64,000 nucleotides of DNA from Phycisphaerae bacterium (lineage in GTDB: Bacteria > Planctomycetota > Phycisphaerae > UBA1845). Location of the stretch: assembly GCA_020056715.1 (NCBI GenBank), contig JAGVHG010000106.1, positions 1,153 to 65,152 on the forward strand, in the 5' to 3' direction. Below the pieces are notes generated by a model that did no database searches, was not told the DNA's origin, and was given only the letters and a program-made list of their open reading frames with translations. Positions 34,150-54,821 of the stretch are shown piece by piece. Each line of letters begins with the position of its first letter. Position 1 is the first letter of the stretch. Position numbers and translations under genes: made by a program.

Positions 34150-34503
34150 ACGACCGGTCAATCAGAGCGTGGAGCGGGAACGACACGACTGATCCGAGCC
34201 GCGGGATTCATCCCGCGCGACCACGCCATCCGCGCCGCGCCCATTCTGAAATCTCAAATCTTAAATCCCTGCCTACCCCACCCCTTCAACCCCTTCTCAC
34301 CCTTCAACCCCCTGAACTCTTCAACTCCCAATCTGATCCCCTCGCGTTCACCATCGATATCAGTATCAGAAACCACAGTTCGCCTGATCGTGTGCGTGCA
34401 ACGGCTACTCCCAACCTCACGTCCGCTGTTGAGCACCCAATCGACGTCCCGATATCTACTCTTTATAGACGATATTCGTAGAGATCGGAGTTTGGCCCAC
34501 GAC

Positions 34504-35562
34504 ATGCGAAACAGCACAGCCCTAACCTTCCTTTTGGCCGTCGTCGCGTCGATCACGACCTCCGCGCACGCGGTGGAAGACCCTGGCTCGTTGCGGGTGA
34601 AGCTCGCCTGGCAGATCGCACTGGAGCGGGTGGGCTTCTCGCCGGGCGTCATCGACGGCGGCATCGGGCGTAAAACCGAACTCGCCACGCGAGAGTTCCA
34701 GCGCGTTCGCGGTCTCTCGATTACGGGAAAGTTGGACGCAGCGACGGCGGCCGCGTTGGGAGTGGACACGGGAGGCGTCGTCACAAGCTACACCGTGCAG
34801 GCCGACGATCACACCCAGATCGGCCCCCTCCCCAAAAGCTGGCTGGAAAAAAGTCGTCTCTCACGGCTCGGCTACGAAAACCTGGCCACGCTGATCGCGG
34901 AGAAGTTCCATTGCACAACCGGGCTGCTCGCTCGTCTAAATCCAGGGCGAGACCTAAACCGGCTTCAGGCCGGCGACAGCGTAATCGTCCCCGCAGTCGG
35001 CGAAAGCCCGACGGGTTTGCGCGGTACGCACATGGAGATCGACCTTTCCGAAAAAGTGGTCCGCGTCCTGGATCGCGAGCGAAAACTCGTCGGCTTGTTC
35101 CACTGCTCCATCGCCAAGGATCGCGAGAAACTTCCCTCGGGCGAGGCCTCCGTCGTAGTCATCACCGAGAACCCCAAGTACACCTTCGATCCCAAGATGT
35201 GGCCGGAGGTAAAGGGCGTGGATCGGAAACTGCTCATTCCGCCGGGTCCGCGCAATCCCGTGGGACGATGTTGGATCGGGCTGAGCCTGCCGGGCTACGG
35301 CATCCACGGCAGCCCTAATCCGGAAATGATCGGCAAGACCGGATCGCACGGCTGCTTTCGCCTGACCAACTGGGACGCGATTCGATTGGGCGGAATGATT
35401 CGGGTGGGAACCAGTGTTCGTTTCAGCGGCCACGGTTCTTTGGCCTACTCCGAATCCGTCAAGTCGCCTCGGAATCCTCGCTCCCCAATGGCGGCGGATC
35501 ATTCTTCAATCCTCGCCGTCGCCGGATCGCCTCGCGGAGGACGAATTCAATCTGGGCGTTGA
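34504..35562 (+). CDS. L,D-transpeptidase (YkuD) with peptidoglycan-binding domain
   Basis: Signal MRNSTALTFLLAVVASITTSAHA, PG-binding GVIDGGIGRKTELATREFQ, and catalytic GIHGSPNPEMIGKTGSHGCFRL. Confidence 0.85.
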   Translation: MRNSTALTFLLAVVASITTSAHAVEDPGSLRVKLAWQIALERVGFSPGVIDGGIGRKTELATREFQRVRGLSITGKLDAATAAALGVDTGGVVTSYTVQADDHTQIGPLPKSWLEKSRLSRLGYENLATLIAEKFHCTTGLLARLNPGRDLNRLQAGDSVIVPAVGESPTGLRGTHMEIDLSEKVVRVLDRERKLVGLFHCSIAKDREKLPSGEASVVVITENPKYTFDPKMWPEVKGVDRKLLIPPGPRNPVGRCWIGLSLPGYGIHGSPNPEMIGKTGSHGCFRLTNWDAIRLGGMIRVGTSVRFSGHGSLAYSESVKSPRNPRSPMAADHSSILAVAGSPRGGRIQSGR

Positions 35563-35650
35563 GGCTGCGCAGGTCGTCCTTCGCCCAGCGGGCGAGTTCA
35601 TCCAGCAGATCCGACGGGATCCGCAGCAGATACGGCTTTCGCTCGGGCAT
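35459..35650 (-). CDS. Arc/MetJ-type ribbon-helix-helix DNA-binding protein
   Basis: YLLRIPSDLLDELARWAKDDLRSLNAQIEFVLREAI. It starts 15 nt downstream of the SPFH gene. Confidence 0.6.
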   Translation of the reverse strand: MPERKPYLLRIPSDLLDELARWAKDDLRSLNAQIEFVLREAIRRRRGLKNDPPPLGSEDSEAT

Positions 35651-35664
35651 TGCCGTGTCCGCCC

Positions 35665-36555
35665 CTACGTGTAGAGCGTGCCCGTGTTGACCACCGGATG
35701 GACGGCCTTATCGCCGCAAAGCACGACGAGCAGATTGCTGACCATCGCGGCCTTGCGTTCTTCATCAAGATGCACGGTCCCATGCGCCTCCAGCTTCTCC
35801 AGGGCCATTTCCACCATGCCCACGGCGCCGTCGACGATGCGACTCCGCGCCGCAATGATCGCCTCGGCCTGTTGGCGTTGCAGCATCACCCCCGCGATCT
35901 CCGCGGCGTATGCGAGGTGACTCAAACGAGCTTCATCGACCACGACCCCGGCCTTGGACACGCGTTCCTGAAGTTCGCGCTGCAAGGCCACGGAGACCTC
36001 GTCCATGCTTCCCCGCAAAGACAGCTCCCCCTCATGCGTCGTGTCGTACGGATACGCGCTGGCCATGTGGCGGAGGGCGGACTCGCTCTGAATGGCGACG
36101 TAACTGCTGAAGTCCTCAACGTCGAAGACGGCCTGGGCCGTATTGGACACCCGCCACACGAGCACGGCCGCGATCTCAATCGGGTTGCCGCGATTGTCGT
36201 TGACCTTGATCGTCTGACCGTTGAGGTTGTGGGCCCGCAGCGAGACCTTCTTCTTAAGCAGCAACGGGTTTGCCCATTTGAATCCGCTGTCCTTCACCGT
36301 CCCGGTGTACTTTCCGAAGAGGAGCAGCACCGCGGCGACGTTGGGCTGCAGCATGAAGAAACCAAACCAAAGAAAAAGCCACAGGAGCGACAAGAGTGCT
36401 CCAAGGACGATCCGCCATGTATCAGGCTGGTTATGCGGCAACCAGGGCAACTTGACCCAGTACACGGCAAGGGCTGCACCGGCGATCAACAAGAGCGTCA
36501 CAACCAACCAACCGTTCCATGTCCGAGTTTCAATCTCACGCGTTTGCATGTTCAT
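35665..36555 (-). CDS. SPFH/Band-7 (stomatin/prohibitin-like) membrane protein
   Basis: Two N-terminal TMs, then SPFH-like [32 protein letters not shown]...[18 protein letters not shown] lies 5 nt before the ATG. Confidence 0.8.
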
Positions 36556-36582
36556 TTACTCCTTCCATGCTAAGATATTTAT

Positions 36583-36611
36583 ATTATATCACATTGATAG
36601 CAGTTCTGCAA
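36583..36611 (-). promoter_or_regulatory. Near-consensus sigma70-type promoter for the SPFH gene
   Basis: On the minus strand: TTGCAG (36611-36606), 17-nt spacer, TG-A-TATAAT (extended -10; TATAAT at 36588-36583). It lies within a ~126-bp stretch of about 31% GC (hand count). Confidence 0.45.
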
Positions 36612-36681
36612 GCGACATAACATTAGTATTTACAGGTACTTATATCTTCACACAATAACATACAGGTGAATTCAATGGTGC

Positions 36682-37482
36682 TCATGAGCTGCCGAGCATG
36701 TGTGCGAGGGCGTCGCGTGCCGCCCGAAGGTCAACGATCGGCTGGGCTGAGTCACAACGCCGGACGATGAATGCGCCCCGATATTCGGCGGCATCGAGCA
36801 TGGCCAGGATACTAACGAAATCGACTTCGCCTTCGCCGAAGCGTGTTTCCCGACCAGGCCGATCGGTCAAACCGGCGGTCGCATCTCGCGCGTGCAGAAT
36901 TGCGACCCGGCCCGCGAGTCGCTCCAAGACGTTAGAGGGATTCACTCCGCTCATCACCATCGCCGCAGGGTCCAACCCAATCTGGATCGACGGGCAGCGA
37001 AGTTCGTCCAACACGCCAACGACCCGATCGCCGACGTCGTGCGACGGCCGGATCGCGTAGACCGCCCTGCGGGCCTCGGCGTATTCGCCGATTCGATGCA
37101 ACGCCTCAGCCGCCAACGGAGAGGGTTCGCCGGTCTCGGGATGTGTGAGCGCTCCGACCGAAGCGGTCACAATCCGCACTTTCAGATCTTTCGCAAGATC
37201 GATGATCTCGCAGGTTCGCGCCACACGTTCGTCGACGGTACTCGAATCGGTGAGCCGTAAAGCGGGCATGTCCGCCGCCAACGCGGCCACCCCTAATCCC
37301 AAGCCTTCGACGTACCGGGCAAGATGGCGGCGACCGCTCGAGGAGAGGTTTCGCGGCGCCGCTTCACCCATCGCGGCAGGGAGTTCCACGACGTGAAACT
37401 TGAGTTCGGCGGCTTTGCGAATGGCATCCTTGATGGGCAGGCTCAAGTCGTCCACATCGACCCCGATAAGGTGTGATTGCAT
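36682..37482 (-). CDS. Sugar phosphate isomerase/epimerase (xylose isomerase-like TIM barrel)
   Basis: Pattern typical of the AP_endonuc_2 fold: ...VELPAA.., ..RIVTASVG.., GLDPAAMVMSG, HARD, GEGEVDFVSILAMLDAAEYRGAFIV. Confidence 0.7.
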   Translation of the reverse strand: MQSHLIGVDVDDLSLPIKDAIRKAAELKFHVVELPAAMGEAAPRNLSSSGRRHLARYVEGLGLGVAALAADMPALRLTDSSTVDERVARTCEIIDLAKDLKVRIVTASVGALTHPETGEPSPLAAEALHRIGEYAEARRAVYAIRPSHDVGDRVVGVLDELRCPSIQIGLDPAAMVMSGVNPSNVLERLAGRVAILHARDATAGLTDRPGRETRFGEGEVDFVSILAMLDAAEYRGAFIVRRCDSAQPIVDLRAARDALAHMLGSS

Positions 37483-37601
37483 AGCCGTCCGCTCAACGTG
37501 AAAAGAACCGTGAAAGCATCCGGCAGCCTAACGACATGTGAGTCATTTGGCGAGACGATCACCGCCAACAACGTAGCCTGAAATGAACACCACTCACCCG
37601 C

Positions 37602-38213
37602 CTAAAACTCGATTTGGAGTCGGCGAACTTCTGCGATCTGATAGAAACAACTCATAACCGTCGGAACAAGCACGAGGAACGGCACAACGATGACGCTCCA
37701 AGCAGCCATCGACCGGAAGGTACCCAACACACCCGGCACGTTCATCGCCCAGGAGGTCAGCCCCGATAGCAGCAACAACGCCCCCAGGAACGCCGTGACA
37801 ATGATGACGACATGACGGCGATTGATGACGGCGAAGGCCGTACAGGCGACGAATGCCGCTCCAACCCCGCCCCAGAGCGTTCCACTGCTCAACTTCATGC
37901 TATCGAGATAGAAATGGGTCACACCCGCTCCAATGACTCCACCGAGGACGGCGACGGAAAAGTGCCCAGGCCAATAACTCAACAATCCCAGAACAGCTCC
38001 GCACACGAGGGCGTAGGTCATCTGGTCGTCACTGGGGCCGACGAGTTGGGCACCGATCAGCGTGCCGATCAGGCCGAACGCGAGAACGACGCAGACCTTC
38101 CACAGCCGCCACCCAAAGAGCATCAGGCTCAGCCCGCCCACGATCAACGGGAAGCCGGCGGCGCTGTGCCCATCTCGTAGGAGCGAAATCCAATCCTGGA
38201 TGGAAACAGTCAT
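37602..38213 (-). CDS. Polytopic Gly-rich membrane protein, unknown function (paralog-like to 38309-39133)
   Basis: About 6-7 TM helices. ATG at 38213 is preceded by AGGGGA. The N-terminal helices align with the neighbouring gene (VGGLSLMLFGWRLWKVCVVLAFGLIGTLIGAQL vs VAGIGLSVLGAKLARFGVTSAFVVLGGVYGARF). Confidence 0.6.
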   Translation of the reverse strand: MTVSIQDWISLLRDGHSAAGFPLIVGGLSLMLFGWRLWKVCVVLAFGLIGTLIGAQLVGPSDDQMTYALVCGAVLGLLSYWPGHFSVAVLGGVIGAGVTHFYLDSMKLSSGTLWGGVGAAFVACTAFAVINRRHVVIIVTAFLGALLLLSGLTSWAMNVPGVLGTFRSMAAWSVIVVPFLVLVPTVMSCFYQIAEVRRLQIEF

Positions 38214-38308
38214 GTTGAGTCCCCTAAGACGCAGCTTCGACGACAAACGGTGCGTCCCCACGGGCGCGCATTCCGGAAGCCGACTTCGCATCCAAGGTAC
38301 GATATCGT

Positions 38309-39133
38309 TCAGGATTTGGCGGTGGATTCACCCTTCGCCGACGGCGATTTACGGGAAAGCATCGTCTGGAGGATCAGCGAGGTCACCAGAAACCCACCGA
38401 CCCCGACGCCGACTAGGCTGGGGTTGTTTTGGAAGGCCTGATAAGATTCCGGTACAGAGTGCGTCAGCAGCGTCGCCGCCGCCGTAGTCACCAGCACCGT
38501 CCCAACCAATGAGGTCGCCAGAATCAGCGCAATGCGTACGGCCACAATTCCCAGGCATAGACCGGTAAGTAGCGCCACAGTCGCAAGCGCCTTGGTGTTG
38601 CGCGCGACGTTCACGTCTCGTTGGGTGACGAACGCCCAGAACTCCTCCGCCCACTGCCGTGGAGTTCGGTCGCGATAGGATTGCTGCTCTATAGGAGTGG
38701 GAACAGCGAAGGTGATCGGACTTTGGATCGCGGGTTGTTGCGCTCCTTGCTCAAACTCCGCGACGTAGGGCACAACCTGATGGTAGCCGAAGGTACCCAA
38801 GACCAGTGATGAAAATACAACCGCCGCGCCCAGCCCCACCCATAGACGGAAAGTCTGGTAGGCGATCATGCCGATCAAGAAGGCGCCCACAAGCCCACAC
38901 ATCAGAGGATGGAAACCCAACTCCTTACCGAATCGCGCCCCATAAACACCGCCCAACACGACAAACGCGCTGGTAACTCCAAACCGGGCCAACTTCGCTC
39001 CGAGGACACTGAGGCCGATGCCGGCCACTAGGAAGATCAGGGCGGCCGGGACTGCCCCTCGCAAGGCATCGGTCGGAGCGTGCTGCACGACGAAAAGACG
39101 CGCCTGTTCGAGGATGGTTTCGACTTCGTTCAT
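38309..39133 (-). CDS. Polytopic Gly-rich membrane protein, unknown function
   Basis: About 7 TM helices with a soluble loop of about 60 aa. First gene downstream of ftsQ on the same strand. Confidence 0.6.
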   Translation of the reverse strand: MNEVETILEQARLFVVQHAPTDALRGAVPAALIFLVAGIGLSVLGAKLARFGVTSAFVVLGGVYGARFGKELGFHPLMCGLVGAFLIGMIAYQTFRLWVGLGAAVVFSSLVLGTFGYHQVVPYVAEFEQGAQQPAIQSPITFAVPTPIEQQSYRDRTPRQWAEEFWAFVTQRDVNVARNTKALATVALLTGLCLGIVAVRIALILATSLVGTVLVTTAAATLLTHSVPESYQAFQNNPSLVGVGVGGFLVTSLILQTMLSRKSPSAKGESTAKS

Positions 39134-39270
39134 AGTGACACCACTTTAACCTCCCCCATTATTCTACCTTCTCATTCGGCCACGGTGGCGTAATATTCTG
39201 TATCCCTTTTCCCCCCGGCAATGCCGTAACCCCAGTATTAGCACGGCTAAGCCGATTTCCGAAGCATGGG

Positions 39271-40203
39271 TTAACCGGGGATCGTGTAACGGTCGGGGAA
39301 CGTGGAGACGTCGATCACCGCATGGCGGGCATCCACCCGTCCCGTCTTGCTGAAGTTCTCACGCAGTAAAGCTAATTTTTGCTGGACGCCATTTTCCTCT
39401 AATTCCGATCCTGGGGCCGATCCCCAACGAATTCGCCCACCGGCTTGATCGGTCATCAGCTCGATATGGCAAGCCCTCGTGTCGCGGCGTCCGCCGAAGT
39501 TGGCGACCGCAACACCGACGATTTGCCGTCCGAAGGGTTCGTCCTTCACGGCCGAAAGGACGGCCAAGGCAGCGCGGACATCCTCGCCGTCCCACGGCGC
39601 GCCTGCTTGCGGCGCAGGTTTGGCGACGCCGTCGATCAAACGCCAAGCGGGGGTATGGACGTAGACCCCGGGCAAGCGGACGGCCTCCGCATCCGATAGA
39701 AAGAACTTGTCACCGTGCTGGACCAACGCGGCAGGAACGCGATAACGACAACTGATTTCAAATCGCCCGCCTCCGGTTCGCCGTACGAAATTCACCCGTG
39801 AGACCCATCCGACCCCGGCGATTCGCGTAGCCATCTCGCCACAAAGGCGATCGTCCGTCCATTCTCGTCCGAGCAGGTCGAACAGGCTGCTGTGCAGGTC
39901 GTAGTTTGCGAGGGTCACAAGCTCCTTGGGCAAGTCGACAAACTCGACGACGGGGTCGGGCCGATCGTGGAGAAGCAGTTCATCAACATGGGCGTCGAGT
40001 CGCCCCAAGGCCATCCATCCGCCGGACAGCATCACAACAACAGACACAGCGATCCCACCCACGACGGCGGTCCGCCGCCAGGGCAGGTGCGCCGCCCAGG
40101 ACCACCATCCTCGCTTCGCCGATCGCGTCAGCCGAACGACCCGTGAGTCGTTCGGCGAGGACAACGACCCCTTGCTCTTGTTCCTGCGTCGTTTTCGTCG
40201 CAT
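39271..40203 (-). CDS. ftsQ: Cell division protein FtsQ/DivIB-like (POTRA)
   Basis: Basic cytoplasmic tail MRRKRRRNKSKG, a single TM AVVGGIAVSVVVMLSGGWMAL, and a POTRA-like region. It sits directly after ddl. ATG at 40203; the track TTG at 40227 lies inside a palindrome. Confidence 0.65.
   Translation of the reverse strand: MRRKRRRNKSKGSLSSPNDSRVVRLTRSAKRGWWSWAAHLPWRRTAVVGGIAVSVVVMLSGGWMALGRLDAHVDELLLHDRPDPVVEFVDLPKELVTLANYDLHSSLFDLLGREWTDDRLCGEMATRIAGVGWVSRVNFVRRTGGGRFEISCRYRVPAALVQHGDKFFLSDAEAVRLPGVYVHTPAWRLIDGVAKPAPQAGAPWDGEDVRAALAVLSAVKDEPFGRQIVGVAVANFGGRRDTRACHIELMTDQAGGRIRWGSAPGSELEENGVQQKLALLRENFSKTGRVDARHAVIDVSTFPDRYTIPG
40127..40155 (-). repeat. dcw palindromic element, copy d
   Basis: gtcagccgaacgac-ccgtga-gtcgttcgg with a 9-bp stem. 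It lies inside the ftsQ N-terminal tail coding region. Confidence 0.85.
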
Positions 40204-40218
40204 GGTCGGGGACTCTGG

Positions 40219-40247
40219 GTCAGCCAAACGACCCGTGAGTCGTTTGG
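40219..40247 (-). repeat. dcw palindromic element, copy e
   Basis: gtcagccaaacgac-ccgtga-gtcgtttgg with a 9-bp stem, in the ddl-ftsQ intergenic region. Confidence 0.85.
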
Positions 40248-40265
40248 CGAATGATTAACTAACAC

Positions 40266-41225
40266 TCAGCCGTTTTTCATCGACAGTTCGACGATCCTCT
40301 GGCAGAGGCGGTCGAAGGTGAGGCCGATCCGAGCAGCGGCCTTGGGCAACAGAGAATGGCTGGTGAAGCCGGGGATGGTGTTCACTTCCAGGAAGTAAGG
40401 CTCCATGCTGGCGGCGTCGACCATGCAGTCGACACGGGAAAACACGCGGCATCCCAGCGCCCGATGAGCGGCAAGGCTAAACCGTTGGACCCCTACGAGC
40501 AGTTCAGGCGGCAGGTCGAGGTCGAATAGGTACTGCGTGTTGTCGTCGAGATACTTGGCCTGATAGTCGTAGAACTCTCTTTGGGTGCGGATTTCGCACA
40601 CCGGCAAAGCATCGTCGCCGAGGACGCCGACCGTAAGCTCAGGCCCGGCGATATATTTCTCCACCAAAGCCTTCCCGTACTTCGCTACGACCGCGTTCGC
40701 TGCTTCCTCCAGGGCCTTCGGAGTACGGGCGATGCTCGTATCGACGCTGCTGCCGGAAGAAACGGGTTTCACAACCACAGGTAGCTTGATGCGTGTGGCA
40801 AGCCCCGCGAGTCCCGCCCTTGTGACCAGTTCATAGGGAGGCGTCGGCACACCTGCCCGCTCGAAACATTGCTTAGACTCGGCCTTGTCCATGGCGAGCC
40901 GCGAGGCCGCCGCGCCGGTGCCGCTGTAGCGTAACCCGCGGGCATCGAGTTCGGCCTGTAAGGCCCCGTCCTCACCGAACTCACCATGCAGAGCGATGAA
41001 TACAAAATCAGCGGGGCGATCCAGGGCCGAAAGATCAGTCGGCCCAATATCACACAACTCAACTCGGTGTCCAACCCGGCGAAGGGCGTCGCAGACGGCG
41101 CGGCCGCTGCTGAGGCTCACTTCCCGCTCCACGCCGGGACCGCCGGCGAGGACGGTGATATCCAACAGTTCGACATTGGGTCGAGTTCGCTCGCCGCGCG
41201 TCGTCTTTGACAAAGCCACAGCCAT
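40266..41225 (-). CDS. ddl: D-alanine--D-alanine ligase
   Basis: Motifs ALHGEFGEDGALQ and EVNTIPGFT. Confidence 0.92.
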   Translation of the reverse strand: MAVALSKTTRGERTRPNVELLDITVLAGGPGVEREVSLSSGRAVCDALRRVGHRVELCDIGPTDLSALDRPADFVFIALHGEFGEDGALQAELDARGLRYSGTGAAASRLAMDKAESKQCFERAGVPTPPYELVTRAGLAGLATRIKLPVVVKPVSSGSSVDTSIARTPKALEEAANAVVAKYGKALVEKYIAGPELTVGVLGDDALPVCEIRTQREFYDYQAKYLDDNTQYLFDLDLPPELLVGVQRFSLAAHRALGCRVFSRVDCMVDAASMEPYFLEVNTIPGFTSHSLLPKAAARIGLTFDRLCQRIVELSMKNG

Positions 41226-41230
41226 CCGAC

Positions 41231-42130
41231 TTACCTCCGTACCCCCATCGGTCGCCAGATGTCGATTTCGACCTCCAGCTCCGTGCTAAAGGCGCTACGC
41301 ACCCGCTCGCGGATCAAGTCGATCAAGTGCAATACGTCGGACGCGGTCGCACCACGGCGGGCCACGATGAAATTCGCGTGACGTTCCGAAACCCGGGCCG
41401 CGCCCCACTGCGCACCCTTCAGTCCGGCCTGGTCGATCAGCGCGCCGGCGGATCGGCCGACTGGGTTTTTGAAGATGCAACCCGCGCTGCGGTCGCCGAG
41501 CGGCTGCGAGTCGCGCTTTTGTGCGAAAGACTCCTCAAACGCGAGTCGAACCTTGGCTGGATCGTCCTCAACCAGTTCCAGTTGCGCGGAAAGCACGATG
41601 TTGTCACCTAGCTCGCAGTGACGATAGCCGAATCCGCAGCGCTCTTTGGACCAAGTTTCCGTGTCTCCCTCCGGACGAAGTACCCGCACGTTCTTTACCA
41701 CATTCCCGAACTCGCCGGATCGCCCACCGGCATTCATCCGAATCGCCCCGCCGATCGTCGAGGGGATGCCGGCCATGCACTCCAGACCGGACAAGCCCAG
41801 CGCACTGCAGGCACGGGCAAAGGGCATCAAATCCACGCCCGCCCCGACGTCCACCTGCGAACCTCGGCGTTCCACACGACGGAAGGAGGCATGATCGAGG
41901 CGCACCACCACCCCGTCAAAGCCGTCGTCGCTGACCAGCACATTGGCCCCACGTCCGAGCACCTTCAGCGGGACTTCCTGCTCCCGTGCTCGAACCGCCA
42001 GAGCGGCTAACTGCTCAGCGCTATGCGGCTGGAACAAATACCGGGCACGTCCACCCAGGCGAAACCACGTCCTTCGCCCCAGTGGAGCATCGCACACGAT
42101 CCGATCCGCAAAGTCGTTCCACCAATTCAT
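41231..42130 (-). CDS. murB: UDP-N-acetylenolpyruvoylglucosamine reductase
   Basis: Motifs TWFRLGGRARY, GRGANVLV and SGLECMAGIPSTIGGA. Confidence 0.9.
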   Translation of the reverse strand: MNWWNDFADRIVCDAPLGRRTWFRLGGRARYLFQPHSAEQLAALAVRAREQEVPLKVLGRGANVLVSDDGFDGVVVRLDHASFRRVERRGSQVDVGAGVDLMPFARACSALGLSGLECMAGIPSTIGGAIRMNAGGRSGEFGNVVKNVRVLRPEGDTETWSKERCGFGYRHCELGDNIVLSAQLELVEDDPAKVRLAFEESFAQKRDSQPLGDRSAGCIFKNPVGRSAGALIDQAGLKGAQWGAARVSERHANFIVARRGATASDVLHLIDLIRERVRSAFSTELEVEIDIWRPMGVRR

Positions 42131-43592
42131 CCGCTACTTTCCAAACATCTCCCGCGCCCATGGTTAGCACCAGATCACCCTCCGCAAGCTGAGGCATCAA
42201 GTGGTCAACAACGCCGGCCAACGTCGGGATGTAATGCGCCCGACCGCCGGCACGACGAATCCGTAAGGCAAGCTCGGCGGAACCGGCCTGCCCCAGAGGG
42301 TCGCCCGAATCCCGCGCCCGATACACCTCGGGAACGATCACCTCATCCGCCTGCCCGAACGACTCGGCGAACTGGTCCATAAAATGCCGAGTTCGTGAAT
42401 CTTGGTGAGGTTGGAAGACCACCCACAACCGCCGTGGACGGTACCTGTCTCGCGCCGCCTCAATGGTAACCCGAATCTCGGTCGGATGATGGGCGTAGTC
42501 GTCCACAATGGTGACGCCGCGACCCTCCGCCCGCCAGCTCAGACGCCGGTCAACCCCAGAGAACGTGAACAGCGCCTCGGCGATGCGTTCAGGCTCGGCC
42601 CCCGCGTGGTACGCAAGGGCGATGGCGGCGAGGGCGTTGGCCACATTGTGCCGACCGGGAATAGATAAACCGGTCGAGAATAGTCGTGCGCCCCGAAGGT
42701 TAACATCGAAGCCGTATCGACCGCGGTCGATGCGAAGATTGCATGCCTGCCAGTCAGCGCCATCCGAAAAACCGAAGGTCTCCACCGGGCACCGCGCGGC
42801 GGAGGCGGCGGCTAAAGGCATTGTCTCGGTCCAACACTCATCCGCCGACGGCGGATTGGCCCTGACGGCCCGTCGGTCCTCGGCGTTGCAGAGTAGCACA
42901 CCGTCAGGGGCAACGTTCTCCGCGAATCGCGAGAAGGCGTCCACGATGTCGTCCAGATCGCGATAGCAGTCCAGGTGGTCCGACTCGATATTCAGTATGG
43001 CTGCGAGATGGGGCTGGAGGTACAAGAAAGAGCGGTCGAACTCGCACGATTCGACGATGAAGTGCGGCCCGCCGCCGACCCCGCTGCTCCCGCCTAGTTG
43101 TGCCGACCTCGCCCCGATGATAAACGAGGGCGATAGCCCGGCTTCGCGAAAAAGATGCACGCACATGCCCGTCGTGGTGCTTTTGCCGTGGGTGCCGGCG
43201 ATGGCGACCGCCTTACGAATCTTAGTCAACTCGCCTAGAAGTTGTGCATACTTGACCACGGGCAGGCCGCGCCGACGGGCGGCGGTCAACTCCGGGTTCG
43301 TATCCGGGACCGCGGCGCTGACGACCACAAGTTCGACATGGGTACTCAACTGCGTCTCGTGATGTCCAATGGCGACGCGGACCCCGCTTTGTACCAGCGG
43401 GCCAAGTCCGTCGAAGGCCGCTAGGTCGGAACCGCTCACCACGGCGCCCAGATCACGAAGCAGTGCGGCGGCGCCGCTCATACCGCAGCCGCCGATGCCG
43501 ATCATGTGAACGTGACGTCCGTTGAAGTTCTTCGGATGCGTGGTTGCCGGCGACGGGCGATCGGCGAAGGCTCCTTCGATCTTCGTGTGCAT
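42021..43592 (-). CDS. murC: UDP-N-acetylmuramate--L-alanine ligase
   Basis: Motifs GIGGCGMSG and GTHGKSTTT. The 3' end overlaps murB by 110 nt. Confidence 0.92.
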   Translation of the reverse strand: MHTKIEGAFADRPSPATTHPKNFNGRHVHMIGIGGCGMSGAAALLRDLGAVVSGSDLAAFDGLGPLVQSGVRVAIGHHETQLSTHVELVVVSAAVPDTNPELTAARRRGLPVVKYAQLLGELTKIRKAVAIAGTHGKSTTTGMCVHLFREAGLSPSFIIGARSAQLGGSSGVGGGPHFIVESCEFDRSFLYLQPHLAAILNIESDHLDCYRDLDDIVDAFSRFAENVAPDGVLLCNAEDRRAVRANPPSADECWTETMPLAAASAARCPVETFGFSDGADWQACNLRIDRGRYGFDVNLRGARLFSTGLSIPGRHNVANALAAIALAYHAGAEPERIAEALFTFSGVDRRLSWRAEGRGVTIVDDYAHHPTEIRVTIEAARDRYRPRRLWVVFQPHQDSRTRHFMDQFAESFGQADEVIVPEVYRARDSGDPLGQAGSAELALRIRRAGGRAHYIPTLAGVVDHLMPQLAEGDLVLTMGAGDVWKVADELVERLCGSDRVRCSTGAKDVVSPGWTCPVFVPAA

Positions 43593-43699
43593 GGCGATCC
43601 CTCAAGTGCGTATAATGAAGCTCAGCGCGAGGGGGTAAGCCGATCGAGACCACAGCGTCCGGCGTACACGCCGCGCCCTCGTCTCATTTATCGGGTGTG

Positions 43700-44968
43700 T
43701 TAGCACGTTGCCTCCACCGATTCGCACGCTCGGTCCGAGCTGGGTTTCTCCGCAAGACGAAGCACCTGCTCCGCGATGACGACTGCGGCGTTGCCGCGGC
43801 CCATGGACCGTGCGGCTGAGGACATTACCTCTCGCGCAACGTCTCCGGTCAGCAACTCTTCCAACACGCTTCGCAGCGCCGGGCCGTTGATCGCCGGGTC
43901 GATCGCATCGCGCACAATCCGCGCGGCTGATAGGCGGGCCAGACATTTCGCGTTCGCAAACTGATGCTGATCGCGGTGGTAGGGATAAGGCATGAGGATC
44001 GAAGGCTTGCCCGCCGCGGTAATCTCCGCCAGTGTTGAGGCGCCGGCTCGGGAGATCACTAAATCGGCGGCACGGAGGGCATCGGCCATGTGGTCCGTGT
44101 AGGGCTGTACGCACCAACTTTTCGCACAAACACCCAAGGGTGTTTGTGCTGACTGGGCGGCGATCGACCGGGTTCGATAGGCGGCGACCGTATCGGCGTG
44201 GTCTCTTTCGCCGGTCAGGTGCAGAATTTGCCAGTTGGGAAGCAACTCGACCAAATCCAGGTTGGCAATCACGGCCTCATTGATGGACTTTGAGCCTTGC
44301 GAAGCTCCAGTCACCAGTAGAGTCTTGCGATCCGATCGAAGCCCGAACCGTGCGATCCCGCTTTCTCGCTCCGTCGAGTCGAACCCCGGTCGGATCGGGC
44401 ATCCCAGAACCCGGACATCCGTGCCTCGCGGGTAGTGATCCACGGTATCCTCCCATTGGGCGAAAACGACATCGGCGATGCCCGCGAGATGCCGGTTGGC
44501 CCGGCCGGGAAGGGCGTCGGGATTGAGAATGGCGGTGGGAATACCCAGCCGATGGGCCTCGCGGACTGCCGGCACCGAAGCCATACCGCCGGTTCCAATG
44601 ACCACCACAGGTGGATCAAATTCAAAGCGGGTGCGGCACAAGCCGGAGGATCGTCGTAACCCAAGATAGATGCTCGGCCAGCGCCACGGCATCGACGAAA
44701 GAGCAGGCAAGGTCTGGCGGACGATATCGCAATCAACCCGGCTGAGGATTCGGTCGTCAATGGGTCGCTGTGTGCCGAAAAAGACGAACCGGGCATCTGG
44801 TACATGTCGGCGGATGGCGTCGGCTATAGCAATCGCCGGGTACAAGTGGCCGCCTGTACCGCCGCCGGCAAAGGCAATCAACGGACCAGTGCCACGGGCA
44901 TCCTTTTCGTGATCCACCGGCTGGAAGCCGGTGCTACAGAAAGGCGATCGTGGGCCTTCTGCAATCAC
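43700..44968 (-). CDS. murG: UDP-GlcNAc:lipid I N-acetylglucosaminyltransferase
   Basis: GGTGGHLYPA and ISRAGASTLAEI. Contains an in-frame 26-nt palindrome (see findings). Confidence 0.9.
   Translation of the reverse strand: MIAEGPRSPFCSTGFQPVDHEKDARGTGPLIAFAGGGTGGHLYPAIAIADAIRRHVPDARFVFFGTQRPIDDRILSRVDCDIVRQTLPALSSMPWRWPSIYLGLRRSSGLCRTRFEFDPPVVVIGTGGMASVPAVREAHRLGIPTAILNPDALPGRANRHLAGIADVVFAQWEDTVDHYPRGTDVRVLGCPIRPGFDSTERESGIARFGLRSDRKTLLVTGASQGSKSINEAVIANLDLVELLPNWQILHLTGERDHADTVAAYRTRSIAAQSAQTPLGVCAKSWCVQPYTDHMADALRAADLVISRAGASTLAEITAAGKPSILMPYPYHRDQHQFANAKCLARLSAARIVRDAIDPAINGPALRSVLEELLTGDVAREVMSSAARSMGRGNAAVVIAEQVLRLAEKPSSDRACESVEATC
44124..44153 (+). repeat. dcw palindromic element, copy c (inside murG)
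   Basis: gcacaaacaccc-aa-gggtgtttgtgc forms a 12-bp perfect stem, followed by tgac. Confidence 0.85.
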
Positions 44969-46131
44969 GAGGTCACCCCGTCCGCATCCTCAAGCATGGC
45001 GCGATGCGCAATCGCAGCCAAAAGTCCAACCGCCGCGCAAACCGTAAACAGGCCGCTGCCGCCTGCGGAAAGCATCGGAAGCGGTACTCCTGTGGTCGGC
45101 ATCATGACCGTGACGACGGCGACGTTCATCGCCGCCTGTATGGCGACTAGGAAGGTCAACCCGAACGCCAAGAGCCGCTCAAACCGCGTTCTGGCAGAAA
45201 GCATGGTGCGGATTCCCATCCACACAAAAGCGCAGAACAACAAGATCACCAGCGCCCCGCCGAACACTCCCAGCTCTTCGCACAGTACGGCGAAGACAAA
45301 ATCGGTATGGCTCTCCGGAAGATAGCCGTACTTTTGCACGCCCGATCCCAGGCCCGTACCCCACCATCCGCCCGAAGCGACGGTGACCAACGACTGCAAG
45401 GGTTGATAGCCGTTACCCCGGGGATCGCCCCAAAAGTCCTGGTAGGCCGCGATTCGCGCCAAGCGATATGGGGCCGCAAACAGCAAAACGGTCAATCCGG
45501 CGGCGCCGAGGCCGACGATCAGCAGTAAGTGATGCAAGCGGCAACCCGCGACAAAAAGAATCGCCCCAGCCGCACATGCCAGCAGCGCCGCCGTCCCGAA
45601 GTTTTCCTTGCCCACCAGGCCGACGCAAAGGCCGATGGCGAGCGCGGCGGGGAGGAATGCCCGTCCAAAAGACCGGGGGTTGGCGTTTCGTTCTCCCAGC
45701 AACGAAGCCAAGAAGGCAACCAACGCCAGCTTGGCAAGCTCCGAGGGTTGAAAGCCGACGCCGATCCCAAATCGCCCCAAATGGAGCCAACGCTGGGACC
45801 CGTGATGCGGGTCAGCTAGCCCCGGCACCAAGGCCGCCGCCAGCAACGCGACGGCCAGCACGAACAGAATTTTCGGAAGGCGGGCGCGAACGGACGGAGA
45901 TGCAAGCAGTGGTATGCCCAACCGTGCGGTCAGCAACATGATGGCCAGGCCGATGAGCATGAAGATCGCCTGCCGACCGAAGGGGGTGGTCCAGATACGC
46001 GGGGCCAGCAGCGATCGGTCGAGCGAGGCGGTCGCCGATCCGACCATCACCAAGCCAATGGACATCAACATGACCGCGATGAGGATCACCGCGGCAGGTC
46101 GAACGGGAGTGGTGCGATCTAGGGCAACCAT
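44965..46131 (-). CDS. ftsW: SEDS-family peptidoglycan glycosyltransferase FtsW
   Basis: Motifs FQPSELAKLAL and LPESHTDFVFA, with about 10 TMs. Overlaps the murG start by 4 nt. Confidence 0.88.
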   Translation of the reverse strand: MVALDRTTPVRPAAVILIAVMLMSIGLVMVGSATASLDRSLLAPRIWTTPFGRQAIFMLIGLAIMLLTARLGIPLLASPSVRARLPKILFVLAVALLAAALVPGLADPHHGSQRWLHLGRFGIGVGFQPSELAKLALVAFLASLLGERNANPRSFGRAFLPAALAIGLCVGLVGKENFGTAALLACAAGAILFVAGCRLHHLLLIVGLGAAGLTVLLFAAPYRLARIAAYQDFWGDPRGNGYQPLQSLVTVASGGWWGTGLGSGVQKYGYLPESHTDFVFAVLCEELGVFGGALVILLFCAFVWMGIRTMLSARTRFERLLAFGLTFLVAIQAAMNVAVVTVMMPTTGVPLPMLSAGGSGLFTVCAAVGLLAAIAHRAMLEDADGVTS

Positions 46132-46173
46132 GCTATGTCATCCTTGACATTCATTATCATTGGAAACTTGTGC

Positions 46174-47310
46174 TCAACGCAGCTTGATCGACGCCAGGGC
46201 CAAGCCCGCGAACATCGCCGCCACCAACCAAAACCGCACCACGGTCTGCGGCTCGCTCCAGCCGCCCAGGTGAAAATGATGATGAATCGGCGCACAGCGG
46301 AGGATCCGCCGGCCCGCGCTCCATTTGAAATAGCCGATCTGCACCATCACGGAGACCGCCTCGATCACGAAGACGCCGCCGGCAAGCAGAAGCATCAACT
46401 CCTGCCGCGTGACGACGGCGACAAACCCGATCAACCCGCCCAGAGGAAGCGACCCGGTATCGCCCATGAAAACCCGCGCTGGGTGACAGTTATACCACAA
46501 AAATCCTAAACAGGAACCCAAAATCGCCCCGCAAAGAACGACCAATTCGCCGCTCCTGGGCACATGGGGCAACAGCAGCTTTGCCGCCAGATCCTCGGTA
46601 CCAACGATGTAGGTCAGAATCACGAATACCAGGGCGCACAATGCGACGCAGCCAGAGGCCAGGCCGTCCATCCCGTCGGTAAGGTTGACCGCGTTCGAGG
46701 TCCCCGTCATCACCAAGACAGTGAGGACCATGAACGTCAGCGCCCCAAGCTGCAGGCCGGGCTTGTAGAACGGGACGCTCAAGATGTTGTAGGCCGGCAC
46801 CATCTCGACGGGTGGGTTGAGTACGACGAAGTTGCTCCGCCCGTGGTTGTAGATATAGAACCCAAGGACCACGCCCAGGCCGATCTGAAAGAGCAGCTTC
46901 TCGTGCATCTTCAAACCGTCGCGCGAGGTTGCCCGCCTTTGGGAGGTCAGCTTGAGCCAGTCGTCGATCGCCCCGAGTGCCCCCAGCCAGAATAAGCAGA
47001 CCAATCCCATCCGCACATAGAAGTTCGTCAGATCGGATAGAAGTAATACCGCAAGAGCAATGGACCCGAGGATCATCATCCCGCCCATCGTGGGGACGTT
47101 ATTCTTGTCGCGGGTCAGTTCGTTGAGCGAGGCATGATCGAACTCCGGTCGATCACCGAGCTTCCATTTCACAAGCTGCCGAATCATCCGCGGCAGCAGG
47201 ATTAAGGTGAAAAGGAAACAGAAAAGGGCCGCACAGGTTCCTCGGAAAAGGGTGTTCTCGTAGGCGTAATGTCGGCCCTCCGACCATTCCTGAAGAAGGT
47301 GATACAGCAC
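46174..47310 (-). CDS. mraY: Phospho-N-acetylmuramoyl-pentapeptide transferase
   Basis: Motifs NNVPTMGG, NAVNLTDGMDGLA and GDTGSLPLGG. Confidence 0.93.
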   Translation of the reverse strand: MLYHLLQEWSEGRHYAYENTLFRGTCAALFCFLFTLILLPRMIRQLVKWKLGDRPEFDHASLNELTRDKNNVPTMGGMMILGSIALAVLLLSDLTNFYVRMGLVCLFWLGALGAIDDWLKLTSQRRATSRDGLKMHEKLLFQIGLGVVLGFYIYNHGRSNFVVLNPPVEMVPAYNILSVPFYKPGLQLGALTFMVLTVLVMTGTSNAVNLTDGMDGLASGCVALCALVFVILTYIVGTEDLAAKLLLPHVPRSGELVVLCGAILGSCLGFLWYNCHPARVFMGDTGSLPLGGLIGFVAVVTRQELMLLLAGGVFVIEAVSVMVQIGYFKWSAGRRILRCAPIHHHFHLGGWSEPQTVVRFWLVAAMFAGLALASIKLR

Positions 47311-47328
47311 GCTTCGCCGCTTTCCGTC

Positions 47329-48858
47329 TCAACACCCAGGCGATGTCGGATGGGGGATGGCGGATGGAGGATGGGAAGTGGATGGCGAACTCCTCCGACA
47401 TCCCACTTCCGACATCCGACATCGAAGGTGCCGGACCACCCCATCGAGCTGCATGCCCCTGGACCCTTTAATCCAAACCGTATCCCCATCCACGACGAGA
47501 CCGTCCAATAGAACGTTAGTGGAGAGAACATCCGCGCAACAATGAACCTCGGTGCCGAATCGGTCGGGCGTTTGCGCGCGGGCTGCTGCGATCGTTGCGG
47601 GGCCTACCGCGACCAATACTTCAATTCCCGCCTCGAACGCCTCGCGGATGACTCGGCCATGGGAGGCCGCACTGTCCACGCCGAGTTCGAGCATATCGCC
47701 CAACACTAGCACCCGACGTCCGTTCTCCGCGGCTCGTAGCGTCTCAACCGCCGCATGGACGCTCGAAGGGTTGGCGTTGTAAGCGTCATCCACGATCTTC
47801 ACGCCGCCGACTTCCTCCAACTCCGTTCGGCCCTGCGGCGGGCGGAACGAACGAAGTCGCTCGACGATCCGCTCGGGCGCCACACCGAACCACCGGGCCA
47901 CGGCAAACGCCGCAGCCGCGTTGGTCGCGTGGTGCGCTCCGGGCATGGGAAGCTCGATCTGGTGGCGACCTTCCAGCTCGAACGCGGTCCCGTAGAGGTT
48001 CGCCCGGCGACGAGTGACAAACAGTTTGGCGCTCTGCTCCACTCCGAAGGTCAGCAAACGAGTGCCACTGTTGGCACAACAGTGCCCCCCATCGGCATCC
48101 TGATTGCGTGTCCGTGCTATTGCTGTGCCAACAGTGCCACTCGTGACTGCAAGGTACGGAAGAATCTCCGGTCGGTCGACGTTGACTACGGCAAACCCCG
48201 CGGGCCGCACAAATCGCAAAAGCGAAGTCTTTTCCGCCGCAACGGCGTGAAGGTCGCCCAGGCCTTCCAAATGCGCCTCGCCAATGGAGGTAATCACGGC
48301 GACGTTGGGCGAGACCAAGGCCGCGAGCGCCGCCACCTCACCGGGCGAGTTTGAGCCAATTTCCACGACCAGGTAGCGGTCGTCCGCGTCGGCGGAAAGC
48401 AATGTAAGCGGAACGCCGATCGCGTTGTTGAAGCTCTTGGGTGAGGCCCGCCCCTTGAATTCGCCGGAGAGAATGTGGTCGATCATGCACTTCGTGGTCG
48501 TTTTGCCGTTGCTGCCCGTCACGGCGATGACCACGGTGCTAACCGGCAACACAGTGTGGCGATAGTGCTTCGCCAGGTGACCCAGGGCCGCAAGAGTATC
48601 GTCAACCGACAGCAATGGACCGGACTCTATCGCCGCGTCGAGCCTGCGATCACAAACACACGCGACCGCCCCCTTCGCCAACGCCTGTGTCGTAAACTGA
48701 TGTCCGTCGAATCGCGGACCCCGCAGAGCAAAGAAAAGGTCTCCGGGTTGAACGTCGCGCGAATCGGTCGTGACGCGGCGGATGACAGTTTGAGAAATGC
48801 GCGGATGACAAACAGCACCGACGGCGGCCGCGACATCTCCCAAGGACATCGGGATCAT
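47329..48858 (-). CDS. murF: UDP-MurNAc-tripeptide--D-Ala-D-Ala ligase
   Basis: Motifs TGSNGKTTT and IKGSRGMQLD. ATG at 48858 overlaps the murE stop (ATGA). The last ~30 codons are encoded by the heptamer element. Confidence 0.9.
   Translation of the reverse strand: MIPMSLGDVAAAVGAVCHPRISQTVIRRVTTDSRDVQPGDLFFALRGPRFDGHQFTTQALAKGAVACVCDRRLDAAIESGPLLSVDDTLAALGHLAKHYRHTVLPVSTVVIAVTGSNGKTTTKCMIDHILSGEFKGRASPKSFNNAIGVPLTLLSADADDRYLVVEIGSNSPGEVAALAALVSPNVAVITSIGEAHLEGLGDLHAVAAEKTSLLRFVRPAGFAVVNVDRPEILPYLAVTSGTVGTAIARTRNQDADGGHCCANSGTRLLTFGVEQSAKLFVTRRRANLYGTAFELEGRHQIELPMPGAHHATNAAAAFAVARWFGVAPERIVERLRSFRPPQGRTELEEVGGVKIVDDAYNANPSSVHAAVETLRAAENGRRVLVLGDMLELGVDSAASHGRVIREAFEAGIEVLVAVGPATIAAARAQTPDRFGTEVHCCADVLSTNVLLDGLVVDGDTVWIKGSRGMQLDGVVRHLRCRMSEVGCRRSSPSTSHPPSAIPHPTSPGC
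47343..47422. repeat. Inverted heptanucleotide arrays (copy 2)
   Basis: Left arm atgtcgg atggggg atggcgg atggagg atgggaa, a 17-nt spacer, and right arm ccgacat cccactt ccgacat ccgacat. Same polarity and spacer core (gaacNcct) as 20612-20754. Confidence 0.9.
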
Positions 48859-50390
48859 GCCACTTCCTCCGTGAGAGCAGCGGCGTTCATCCACTTTCGC
48901 GCAACCTCAAGGTCATCGAAGGGTAGCACCCGCTCACCCAGAAGCTGGTACGTCTCGTGTCCCTTCCCCGCGATCAGCACCGTATCGCCCGCTTCGGAAT
49001 CAACCAGCGCCGCTTCGATCGCCCGTTTACGATCCACGTCCACGACGATCCGGCAAGCGTGCGAAGGGCTAAACCCGTGGAGGATTTCATCAATAATCGT
49101 ATGCGGCTCTTCCGTCCGCGGGTTGTCGCTGGTGACGTAGGCGACGTCGGCGAGCTTGCCGACGACGGCGGCCATGCGCGGCCGCTTGGTTCGGTCGCGA
49201 TCACCACCGCAGCCGAACACGCACCGCAGCGTCCCCGTCGTCAAGGGTCGTAGCGTCCGCAACACATTTCCGAGCGCATCGTCGGTATGAGCGTAGTCAA
49301 TAAAGACAGAGTAAGGCCAGCCCGGAGGCTCGGCGCGTTGCAGGCGACCGGGAACGCCGCTCACGTGCTCGAGGCCGCTACGAATCGCCTCTGGTGGAAC
49401 TCCGATAGCCGCAGCCGTGGCCGCGGCCGCGAGCGCGTTGAGGACGTTATGACGTCCGATGAGCGGAGTGCGGATCGACAATTCCAGCGCACGACCGCGT
49501 AACAAATACTCGGTCCCACAGCGATCCATTCCCTCGATGTCCGCACGCACTTGCGCGGACGGTGAGTCGATCCCGTAGGTCACCACCCGCGCGGTAGTGC
49601 CGCGTGCAAGCAATGCGCCCATCGGGTCGTCAACGTTCACGACGGCGACGGCGGAAGGAGCGAGCATTTCAAACAAGCGCCGTTTGGCCGAAAAGTACGC
49701 GTCCATCGTACGGTGGTAATCGAGGTGGTCGCCGGTGAGGTTGGTGAACACACCCGCCGCGAAGGTCAGACCGTCGCAGCGCCGTTGATCCAACGCGTGC
49801 GACGACACTTCCAACACCGCATGAGTCGCGCCCGCGTCGCGTGCCGACGCCAGGTTCCGGCAAAGCTCGATCGACCCCGGCGTGGTGAGCGGAGAGGGCC
49901 GTCGCTTGCCGACCAAGTCGTATTCCACCGTTCCCAGCATCGCCGTGCGATGGTGGGCCGCTTGGAGTATGGAGCGCAACAACCACACGACAGTTGTCTT
50001 CCCGTTGGTCCCGGTGACGCCGATGATGCGCAGCGTTGGCTCGACGCCGCCCAAAAGGCCGTAAAACGCCGGCGCGAGCTTCGCCAGTGCGCTACGAGTA
50101 TCGGCTACGCGCACAACCGCGACGCCGGACGGAGCCGGTCCGTCGCGATCCACGACGATCGCCGCCGCGCCGGATGCTACGGCCGCCGGAACATAATCGT
50201 GCCCGTCGTGCCCGACGCCTCGAACTGCTACAAAACACGCGCCGGGATGAACCGATCGCGAATCGTCGATCAGCGATGAGATGGGGACAGTCGGAATCTT
50301 ACCGCTGTCGCTTGCGAAAACGCCCGCGCGAGCGAACAACTCCGGCAGTGTCCAATGAGTTTCGCGCGAAGATAATTGAGGGTTCCTCAT
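48855..50390 (-). CDS. murE: UDP-MurNAc-L-Ala-D-Glu--2,6-diaminopimelate ligase
   Basis: Motifs GVTGTNGKTT and TSDNPRTEEP. The first ATG is at 50390; the track start 50441 is a GTG. Confidence 0.92.
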   Translation of the reverse strand: MRNPQLSSRETHWTLPELFARAGVFASDSGKIPTVPISSLIDDSRSVHPGACFVAVRGVGHDGHDYVPAAVASGAAAIVVDRDGPAPSGVAVVRVADTRSALAKLAPAFYGLLGGVEPTLRIIGVTGTNGKTTVVWLLRSILQAAHHRTAMLGTVEYDLVGKRRPSPLTTPGSIELCRNLASARDAGATHAVLEVSSHALDQRRCDGLTFAAGVFTNLTGDHLDYHRTMDAYFSAKRRLFEMLAPSAVAVVNVDDPMGALLARGTTARVVTYGIDSPSAQVRADIEGMDRCGTEYLLRGRALELSIRTPLIGRHNVLNALAAAATAAAIGVPPEAIRSGLEHVSGVPGRLQRAEPPGWPYSVFIDYAHTDDALGNVLRTLRPLTTGTLRCVFGCGGDRDRTKRPRMAAVVGKLADVAYVTSDNPRTEEPHTIIDEILHGFSPSHACRIVVDVDRKRAIEAALVDSEAGDTVLIAGKGHETYQLLGERVLPFDDLEVARKWMNAAALTEEVA

Positions 50391-50569
50391 TCTTATCCTT
50401 GTGTCCGCATTGTAAGTGGAAACGCGGAAAGAATCATCCACGCGAGCCGCGGCCTTCAGGCCGCGCGGTCGTACAAATCTCTACACCTATCCCTGTACCG
50501 AGGATCCGCCCAGGGTAAAACATGCGGCTCGTATCGTGCGGGTTCTGTGATATCTTCAACCGCATCCCC

Positions 50570-52318: not shown

Positions 52319-52436
52319 GGGTGGCTCGTATTCCGTTGTTGATCAAGTGAGGGGTGGCCATGCCAGCGCCCGGTTGCCCTGGGCTTGGGCATACCACCCA
52401 CCACCCACCATGTCATCCATGACGGAACGATAGCTT

Positions 52437-52724
52437 CTAAGGCTTCCGAGAGGCTAGCCGTTCCGTCCGCCTCGATACCTCATCGAACCCGGGGGGCACC
52501 AGACCGGTCTGGAACGCCGCCACCCGGTCATGAATCCGTTCCGGGGCTTTTAATCGCGCAATCCGCGTCTGCAAGCCCCAAAGATCACGCCGCAATCGCA
52601 CCCAGTCGGCGTCGATCGCGACCATCCGCGCCGCACATCGCGTCTGTTCGGCGCGAAGATGAACGACCGTAAGAGCGATCGCCGCGAACGCAACCGATAG
52701 GGCGAACCCCCGAGCGACCGTCAA
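52437..52724 (-). CDS. FtsL-like small bitopic protein
   Basis: 95 aa with TM FALSVAFAAIALTVVHL followed by a helical segment. It occupies the ftsL position upstream of ftsI. Sequence similarity is not verifiable by eye. Confidence 0.45.
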   Translation of the reverse strand: MTVARGFALSVAFAAIALTVVHLRAEQTRCAARMVAIDADWVRLRRDLWGLQTRIARLKAPERIHDRVAAFQTGLVPPGFDEVSRRTERLASRKP

Positions 52725-53791: not shown

Positions 53792-53800
53792 GACTCAGCA

Positions 53801-54796: not shown

Positions 54797-54821
54797 CAGC
54801 CCCAAAGCCCGTGAGCGTTGG
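54796..54821 (-). repeat. dcw palindromic element, copy f (degenerate)
   Basis: tcagccccaaagc-ccgtga-gcgttgg, with one stem mismatch. It overlaps the rsmH start region. Confidence 0.6.

Follow-up and report, generated by a model that had tools for sequence, protein, structure and literature searches.

A 64-kb stretch of Phycisphaerae DNA (approximately 60% GC), referred to here in its entirety as the window, contains a division and cell wall (dcw) gene cluster that ends at ftsQ and includes neither ftsA nor ftsZ, in agreement with the original prediction made from its gene order. At the position usually taken by ftsA and ftsZ, the cluster carries two genes for polytopic membrane proteins, designated A and B. 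Both are real, conserved genes; they form a Phycisphaerae-specific pair that now makes up the terminal genes of the dcw cluster, and this lineage-specific extension of the cluster is apparently undescribed. A, usually together with B, may be a membrane module that has a functional tie to FtsQ, FtsW, and FtsI within the dcw system, a reading that is put forward tentatively and falls somewhat short of probable. The three genes at the center of the analysis are as follows.

39271-40227, minus strand: 'ftsQ', a mechanical open reading frame (ORF) of 318 aa whose identity comes from its predicted fold
38309-39133, minus strand: gene A, 274 aa
37602-38213, minus strand (mechanical ORF to 38291): gene B, 203 aa

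The distance from ftsQ to A is exactly 137 nt on the same strand, as had been stated. To place this arrangement among relatives, a pattern scan using one genome per GTDB species yielded 36 loci, all from Phycisphaerae or Planctomycetota metagenome-assembled genomes (MAGs), and ten further loci were reached via distant A-family proteins, some with profile-level similarity only (E values of 1e-19 to 1e-25). Loci were checked by tblastn and with hidden Markov models (HMMs) of the FtsQ, A, and B families. In 31 of the 35 evaluable species representatives and in all 10 of the distant loci (41 of 45 in total), the gene immediately upstream of A, in the same orientation, is ftsQ, and the proposed linkage therefore holds in relatives. 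B directly follows A in 33 of 34 species representatives and in 7 of 10 distant loci (40 of 44 in total), a count that includes one locus, L026, where a 1.46-kb insertion splits A from B. The adjacency of ddl and ftsQ is universal in the evaluable loci, and the gene after B varies: a TIM-barrel gene of the sugar-phosphate isomerase/epimerase family occupies this place in 19 loci, or roughly half, with AddAB, DUF456, DUF4920, and other genes found elsewhere. Thus, the conserved block ends after A and B rather than after ftsQ, and the adjacency and orientation of the pair relative to core dcw genes are conserved while its downstream neighbors change.

Homology searches identified 186 homologs of A and 215 of B, with mean column identities of 57 and 58%, respectively. 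The mechanical ORF of B, at 229 aa, required correction; the most likely start is the ATG at 38213, giving 203 aa, since most of the listed homologs are 203 aa long with the same start and a Shine-Dalgarno-like AGGGGA lies upstream. Among 1.84 billion representative proteins, the A family comprised 482 clusters at 50% identity (E < 1e-3), nearly all of approximately 270 to 300 aa. All named members of the two families come from Phycisphaerae or Planctomycetota MAGs, and the 30 clusters that were looked up contained no cultured host, only metagenomic or MAG sources. The source annotations of A and B homologs are nearly all "hypothetical protein," and the literature searched (for DUF4203, PF13886, and genes downstream of ftsQ in Planctomycetes) contained neither a description of the pair nor a mention of DUF4203. 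Neither gene thus has an established unrelated function in the sources examined.

No tblastn match to FtsZ, using a manually entered query sequence, and no tubulin signature was found in the window or across the fetched loci. Elsewhere in the window, the scanned ORFs (220 aa or longer) included no division gene; these encode housekeeping functions. A and B do not themselves stand in for the missing proteins by fold, as they are all-helical membrane proteins and show neither the actin-like ATPase fold of FtsA nor the tubulin-like GTPase fold of FtsZ with its GGGTGT/SG signature. According to published surveys, all Planctomycetota lack ftsZ and ftsB, most also lack ftsA, and the division mechanism is unknown (PMC12673574; PMC12283558). 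Phycisphaerae have lost only those genes, with unknown consequences for division (PMC12673574), and almost all of their dcw set, for which murJ and ftsW are among the genes listed, is conserved (PMC12283558). Given the phylum-wide loss of ftsZ, a dcw cluster that stops at ftsQ is expected for the class and is not in itself new.

Neither A nor B from the window had a match in Pfam or NCBIfam, and profile searches of the two families against PDB sequences returned nothing relevant. Both are glycine-rich (9.5% in A and 11.8% in B), as had been noticed. The transmembrane (TM) helices had been counted as about seven and six; the first figure stands, with seven TM helices in A from hydropathy and the helices of an AlphaFold model (all-helical, pLDDT of 79.7), whereas hydropathy and alignment-based topology give B seven as well. 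A additionally has an N-terminal amphipathic helix and, between TM4 and TM5, a conserved loop of approximately 64 aa with near-invariant residues P145, Q150, R156, P158, W161, and W166. Across the alignments, the counts of Lys plus Arg were 8.0 on the cytoplasmic side versus 3.1 outside for A and 6.2 versus 3.3 for B, and for both of these inner-membrane proteins we infer N-out/C-in topology by the positive-inside rule. The conserved TM4-TM5 loop of A would consequently lie in the periplasm. In the alignments, charged residues are essentially absent from the TM helices of both proteins, and the invariant positions are mostly Gly, Ala, Ser, and Thr packing motifs, plus some Pro, Trp, Arg, and Gln. 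Examples are the GxxxG-like pairs G61/G65 and G191/G195 in A and the small residues G92-G93, G145-A146, and G152 in B. With uncharged helices and invariant packing residues, A and B have the look of a scaffold built on helix packing more than that of an ion-coupled transporter or an enzyme.

Profile comparison identifies A and B as remote paralogs, a relationship first suspected from their N-terminal helices that extends beyond them. A direct BLASTP comparison of the two proteins gave an E value of 0.044, while hhalign of the two families gave a probability of 89% and an E value of 2.2e-6, pairing TM1-4 and TM5-6 and leaving the approximately 64-residue insert of A unaligned; the A-family HMM also cross-matched a B protein (E = 2.4e-5). 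The suggestion of a DUF4203/TMEM198-like relationship was borne out in part. PF13886 (TM7S3/TMEM198-like, formerly DUF4203) was matched at an E value of ≤0.01 in the B family by 22 of 33 members and in the A family by 3 of 33, and one homolog, P0187, aligned to positions 4 to 197 of the 199 in the profile. All scores were below the Pfam threshold, however, with the best B homologs reaching 24.6 to 26.0 bits (E values of 8.7e-6 to 2e-5) against a gathering score of 29.2 bits, and B of the window had no PF13886 match at an E value of ≤0.1. The PF13886 architecture of seven TM helices over about 200 residues is found in both A and B. Taken together, this indicates that A and B are remotely related to PF13886 without being formal members of the family. 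B shares its size of approximately 200 aa as well as the seven-TM architecture, and A is linked to PF13886 through B; unlike PF13886 proteins, A carries the periplasmic insert of approximately 64 aa and the N-terminal amphipathic helix. PF13886 comprises the eukaryotic proteins TMEM198 and TM7SF3 together with uncharacterized bacterial proteins. TMEM198 has a described role in Wnt/LRP6 signaling, which is not transferable to A and B.

The upstream gene, on whose identity the linkage depends, is by its predicted structure a genuine but very divergent ftsQ, recognizable only by fold. At the sequence level, the product of 39271-40227 had no significant Pfam match and only an E value of 0.088 to the NCBIfam FtsQ model; it was not recognized by the POTRA_1 and FtsQ_DivIB_C models or by similarity to solved FtsQ chains, and profile searches with its family against PDB sequences found nothing relevant. 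Two of 24 relatives matched PF03799, at an E value of 0.011. An AlphaFold model built from a 38-sequence alignment of database homologs (pLDDT of 88.2) has a long N-terminal helix followed by alpha/beta domains. When this model was compared with the PDB using Foldseek, the top eight matches were all FtsQ structures from Escherichia coli and Yersinia (E values of 3e-7 to 3e-5, probability of 1.0, target TM-scores of 0.45 to 0.57), the best being 8hhf_Q from the FtsQLB complex (E = 3.1e-7), and it is on this retrieval that the FtsQ label holds. The protein has the layout of FtsQ, with a basic N terminus, a single TM helix, and periplasmic POTRA and beta domains, and its gene follows ddl in the window, as it does in each related locus that could be evaluated. 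The mechanical ORF opens with TTG; the true start is probably the ATG at 40203 (residue M9), giving approximately 310 aa, since M9 is near-invariant and many full-length homologs among those listed are 293 to 297 aa.

The gaps upstream of A and B each contain a conserved noncoding element, as follows.

39161-39198, minus strand: element upstream of A, consisting of GAATATTAC (39190-39198), 10 nt, CCGAAT, 7 nt, and TAGAAT (39161-39179)
38298-38306, minus strand: 9-mer GATATCGTA in the A-B gap, starting 2 nt past the A stop codon

The first element combines a -10-like box with three GAAT direct repeats, and an extended -10 TGn is often present in relatives; in the window, 27 nt separate TAGAAT from the ATG of A. 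The pattern CCGAAT-N6-9-TAGAAT occurs once in the window (0.02 expected), and its strict form was found in 14 loci, always in the ftsQ-A gap and 25 to 130 nt upstream of the A start. Relaxed forms occur in many loci, including L007, where A does not adjoin ftsQ, indicating that the element belongs to A. The second element, GATATCGTA, has a single copy in the window. In each of 23 loci its sole occurrence falls within the A-B gap (L004:2167-2175 and L012:10822-10830 are examples). Across these 23 loci the A and B proteins range from approximately 34% to 84% identity with the window copies, and conservation of the exact 9-mer thus exceeds that of the coding sequence. It is often trailed, 30 to 45 nt further on, by a TGCGCGC-like block. 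In L026, a variant, GATATCTTA, is located just upstream of B, beyond the insertion, suggesting that the element travels with B. The L026 insertion itself contains an opposite-strand ORF of 141 aa (10895-11320, minus strand) that includes GGASGIRDHGLLESAV and resembles, by eye only, a Fic/Doc-type toxin.

RNAalifold found zero conserved pairs in the A-B gap, ruling out GATATCGTA as an RNA structure, and Rfam searches of positions 35000-41000 gave only two sub-threshold chance matches. The 9-mer probably serves B as a promoter or operator, and A and B each probably have dedicated elements of this kind. A generic sigma-70 scan called no minus-strand promoter in the gaps, the A element included. 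A terminator scan identified no site in the ftsQ-A gap, the weak terminator-like sites being inside coding sequence only.

On the reading proposed here, A, usually with B, would form a membrane platform that works with the FtsQ-FtsW-FtsI peptidoglycan synthesis module, and the POTRA and beta domains of FtsQ would be met in the periplasm by the conserved loop of A. Such a platform could take over some of the anchoring or recruitment left uncovered by the loss of FtsA and FtsZ and of FtsB, the usual partner of FtsQ, with expression of A and B driven at least partly by their own upstream elements and not solely by read-through from ftsQ. This reading is supported by the FtsQ fold of the upstream product, by the paralogy of A and B and their relation to DUF4203, and by their shared topology and uncharged TM helices. 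In addition, the column identities of A and B are at a level similar to that of FtsQ (50%); the ftsQ-A order persists throughout the part of the class that was sampled, although the downstream genes change; and the family is confined to a lineage without ftsZ and ftsB and mostly without ftsA. The original proposal that proteins encoded at this position are candidate envelope or division factors is thereby supported in part, through synteny and lineage distribution, while the function assigned to them continues to be read from position.

Several observations weigh against this reading. A role of A and B in division or the envelope is plausible, and the case for it is made from gene order and lineage distribution. 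Linkage is not absolute, as A and B are detached from the dcw cluster in 4 of the 35 species representatives (L007, L012, L025, and L036), in three of which the TIM-barrel gene still adjoins it, and B is absent next to A in four loci (L032, L043, L044, and L046). In a mirror-tree comparison of FtsQ, A, B, and the enzymes across 22 loci and the window, the partial r between A and FtsQ was 0.32, no stronger than the controls (approximately 0 to 0.59), and this signal does not discriminate among the readings. A Foldseek search of the PDB with the A model returned nothing below an E value of 1. The gaps upstream of A and B are long (medians of 143 and 153 nt), and with conserved upstream elements of their own, co-transcription with ftsQ is not required; A and B may not be co-transcribed with it. 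This makes the argument from co-transcription weaker, although promoters inside ftsQAZ are normal in E. coli as well. Finally, ftsQ and most dcw genes are nonessential in the budding planctomycete Planctopirus (PMC10632474), meaning that linkage to the dcw cluster does not guarantee a role in division.

Accessory membrane proteins are familiar components of dcw clusters, including YlmG/YggT in Actinobacteria, Firmicutes, and cyanobacteria and YlxW/YlxX (DUF881; encoded between divIB and ftsA in Bacillus). Like A and B, these are small membrane proteins, polytopic or bitopic, of poorly known function encoded at lineage-specific spots near ftsQ or ftsZ. They coexist with FtsA and FtsZ, however, whereas A and B occur in a lineage without them, and A and B had no Pfam match to the YGGT or DUF881 families. 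With the Z-ring membrane tethers FtsA and ZipA, the likeness is one of place, as A shares the genomic position of ftsA directly after ftsQ; a comparable role as a platform for late divisome proteins is possible by inference. No sequence or fold similarity accompanies it, A and B being integral all-helical membrane proteins and not actin-like ATPases, and FtsZ, the partner of FtsA and ZipA, is absent from the phylum (PMC12673574). FtsB and FtsL are membrane proteins expected to contact the periplasmic domain of FtsQ, as A and B would on the proposed reading, and the absence of FtsB from all Planctomycetota (PMC12673574) leaves the role of FtsQ partner vacant. FtsB and FtsL are bitopic coiled-coil proteins, in contrast to the polytopic A and B, for which no periplasmic coiled coil is predicted.

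A competing explanation, only slightly less likely than the proposed reading, is that A and B are lineage-specific housekeeping membrane proteins that take no direct part in division or peptidoglycan synthesis and act, for example, in membrane homeostasis or organization. Their place behind ftsQ would then be an accident of history, preserved because the end of a highly conserved cluster is under little pressure to rearrange or because of common growth-rate regulation. Such independence would fit the promoter-like elements and long intergenic gaps of the pair, its retention in the four loci where it has left the dcw cluster, and the mirror-tree result, which shows no specific covariation with FtsQ. 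It would also fit the proximity of an SPFH/band-7 gene, found near the pair in the window and next to A, B, and the TIM-barrel gene in L004, L005, L007, L029, and L036. There is precedent for conserved nondivision genes at the ends of dcw clusters, such as lpxC after ftsZ in E. coli. Inertia alone, however, is hard to credit for an adjacency to ftsQ that persists in 91% of loci over a divergence in which the downstream neighbors were reshuffled repeatedly. The family is, besides, restricted to a lineage that has lost ftsA and ftsZ from precisely this point of its dcw cluster.

A stronger claim than attachment to FtsQ-FtsW-FtsI is that A with B is a core component of an FtsZ-independent binary fission machinery of Phycisphaerae, with a membrane-embedded platform gained at the ftsA-ftsZ locus recruiting or activating FtsQ-FtsW-FtsI at the division site. 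Resting as it does on position and distribution, this is unlikely. Were it true, it would be the first time that a lineage-specific division protein had been identified in free-living bacteria without FtsZ, and the operators with GAAT repeats and GATATCGTA would point to a regulatory circuit of their own. Evolution of the dcw cluster has been reconstructed as mainly gene loss or delocalization, with "likely no gene gain" (PMC8871954); a lineage-specific gene family inserted at the former ftsA/ftsZ position and retained in approximately 90% of the sampled Phycisphaerae loci would be a counterexample to that view. The analysis also supplies two candidate genes for the division machinery of Phycisphaerae that are open to direct testing. 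If A and B instead prove unrelated to division, bacterial DUF4203-like proteins will at least have been placed in a genomic context for the first time, and two unusually well-conserved regulatory DNA motifs will have been described.

It is quite improbable that A, B, and the TIM-barrel enzyme form a small metabolic or transport module in which A and B import or export a sugar, or a compound like a sugar phosphate, for conversion by the isomerase/epimerase; the compound might be a precursor of the envelope. The TIM-barrel gene does follow B in the 19 loci noted above, including three of the four detached pairs and the distant loci L040, L045, and L049, but in the other half of the loci it is not beside B and unrelated genes are found instead. 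Moreover, the TM helices of A and B lack conserved charged or polar residues for substrate binding, no similarity to a transporter family was found in Pfam, NCBIfam, or the PDB, and we know of no PF13886 protein that acts as a transporter. That A and B are nonfunctional, as chance ORFs or decaying pseudogenes, has in its favor only the general abundance of spurious ORFs in DNA of 60% GC and is refuted by hundreds of full-length homologs of constant length, invariant residues, conserved topology, and a confident model of A. The possibility that the pair is a replacement lipid II flippase was also considered and rejected, as the dcw set including murJ and ftsW is reported to be nearly complete (PMC12283558), the window contains ftsW, and A and B lack transporter-like conserved polar residues.

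The remaining genes of the cluster and its surroundings for which coordinates are given are as follows.

55343-55813, minus strand: mraZ, dcw cluster
53801-54805, minus strand: rsmH, dcw cluster
52721-53791, minus strand: LysM/TM protein in the ftsL slot (PF01476, E = 6e-12)
50570-52318, minus strand: ftsI, dcw cluster
40266-41225, minus strand: ddl (Pfam match)
36682-37482, minus strand: xylose-isomerase-like TIM barrel of the sugar-phosphate isomerase/epimerase family (PF01261, E = 7.8e-21)
35665-36555, minus strand: SPFH/band-7 gene, beyond the cluster end and after the TIM barrel
34390-35562, plus strand: YkuD L,D-transpeptidase with a PG_binding_1 domain, beyond the cluster end

Excluding ftsQ, the dcw cluster extends over 40266-55813 on the minus strand and lacks murD, ftsA, and ftsZ. 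The order on that strand is mraZ, rsmH, LysM, ftsI, murE, murF, mraY, ftsW, murG, murC, murB, ddl, ftsQ, A, B, and the TIM barrel. Gene identities within the cluster come from ORF translations, Pfam matches for ddl and the LysM protein, and Pfam labels on the equivalent genes in related loci. The PF01261 match agrees with the earlier description of the gene after B as a sugar-phosphate isomerase type; NCBIfam matches of this protein were weak only.

The LysM protein between rsmH and ftsI (356 aa) consists of an N-terminal TM helix, a Pro-rich linker, and the LysM domain, with no obvious FtsL-like coiled coil. The usual mraY-ftsW slot (44965-47310) lacks murD, and tblastn with murC, murE, and murF found no fourth Mur ligase in the window. 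The mraY-ftsW junction is likewise without murD in related loci, for example L002, L040, and L044. The murC 3' end runs into the start of murB, the two genes sharing approximately 110 nt in different frames (42021-42130), and judging from tblastn coordinates a comparable overlap, of roughly 70 to 130 nt, exists in most related loci that have both genes. In the complete 5.4-Mb Phycisphaerae genome that contains L040, no murB is present between murC and ddl, and the gene may have been relocated; murC at this locus (6433-7868) is split into two ORFs of 276 and 213 aa, which could be attributed to a frameshift or an assembly error.

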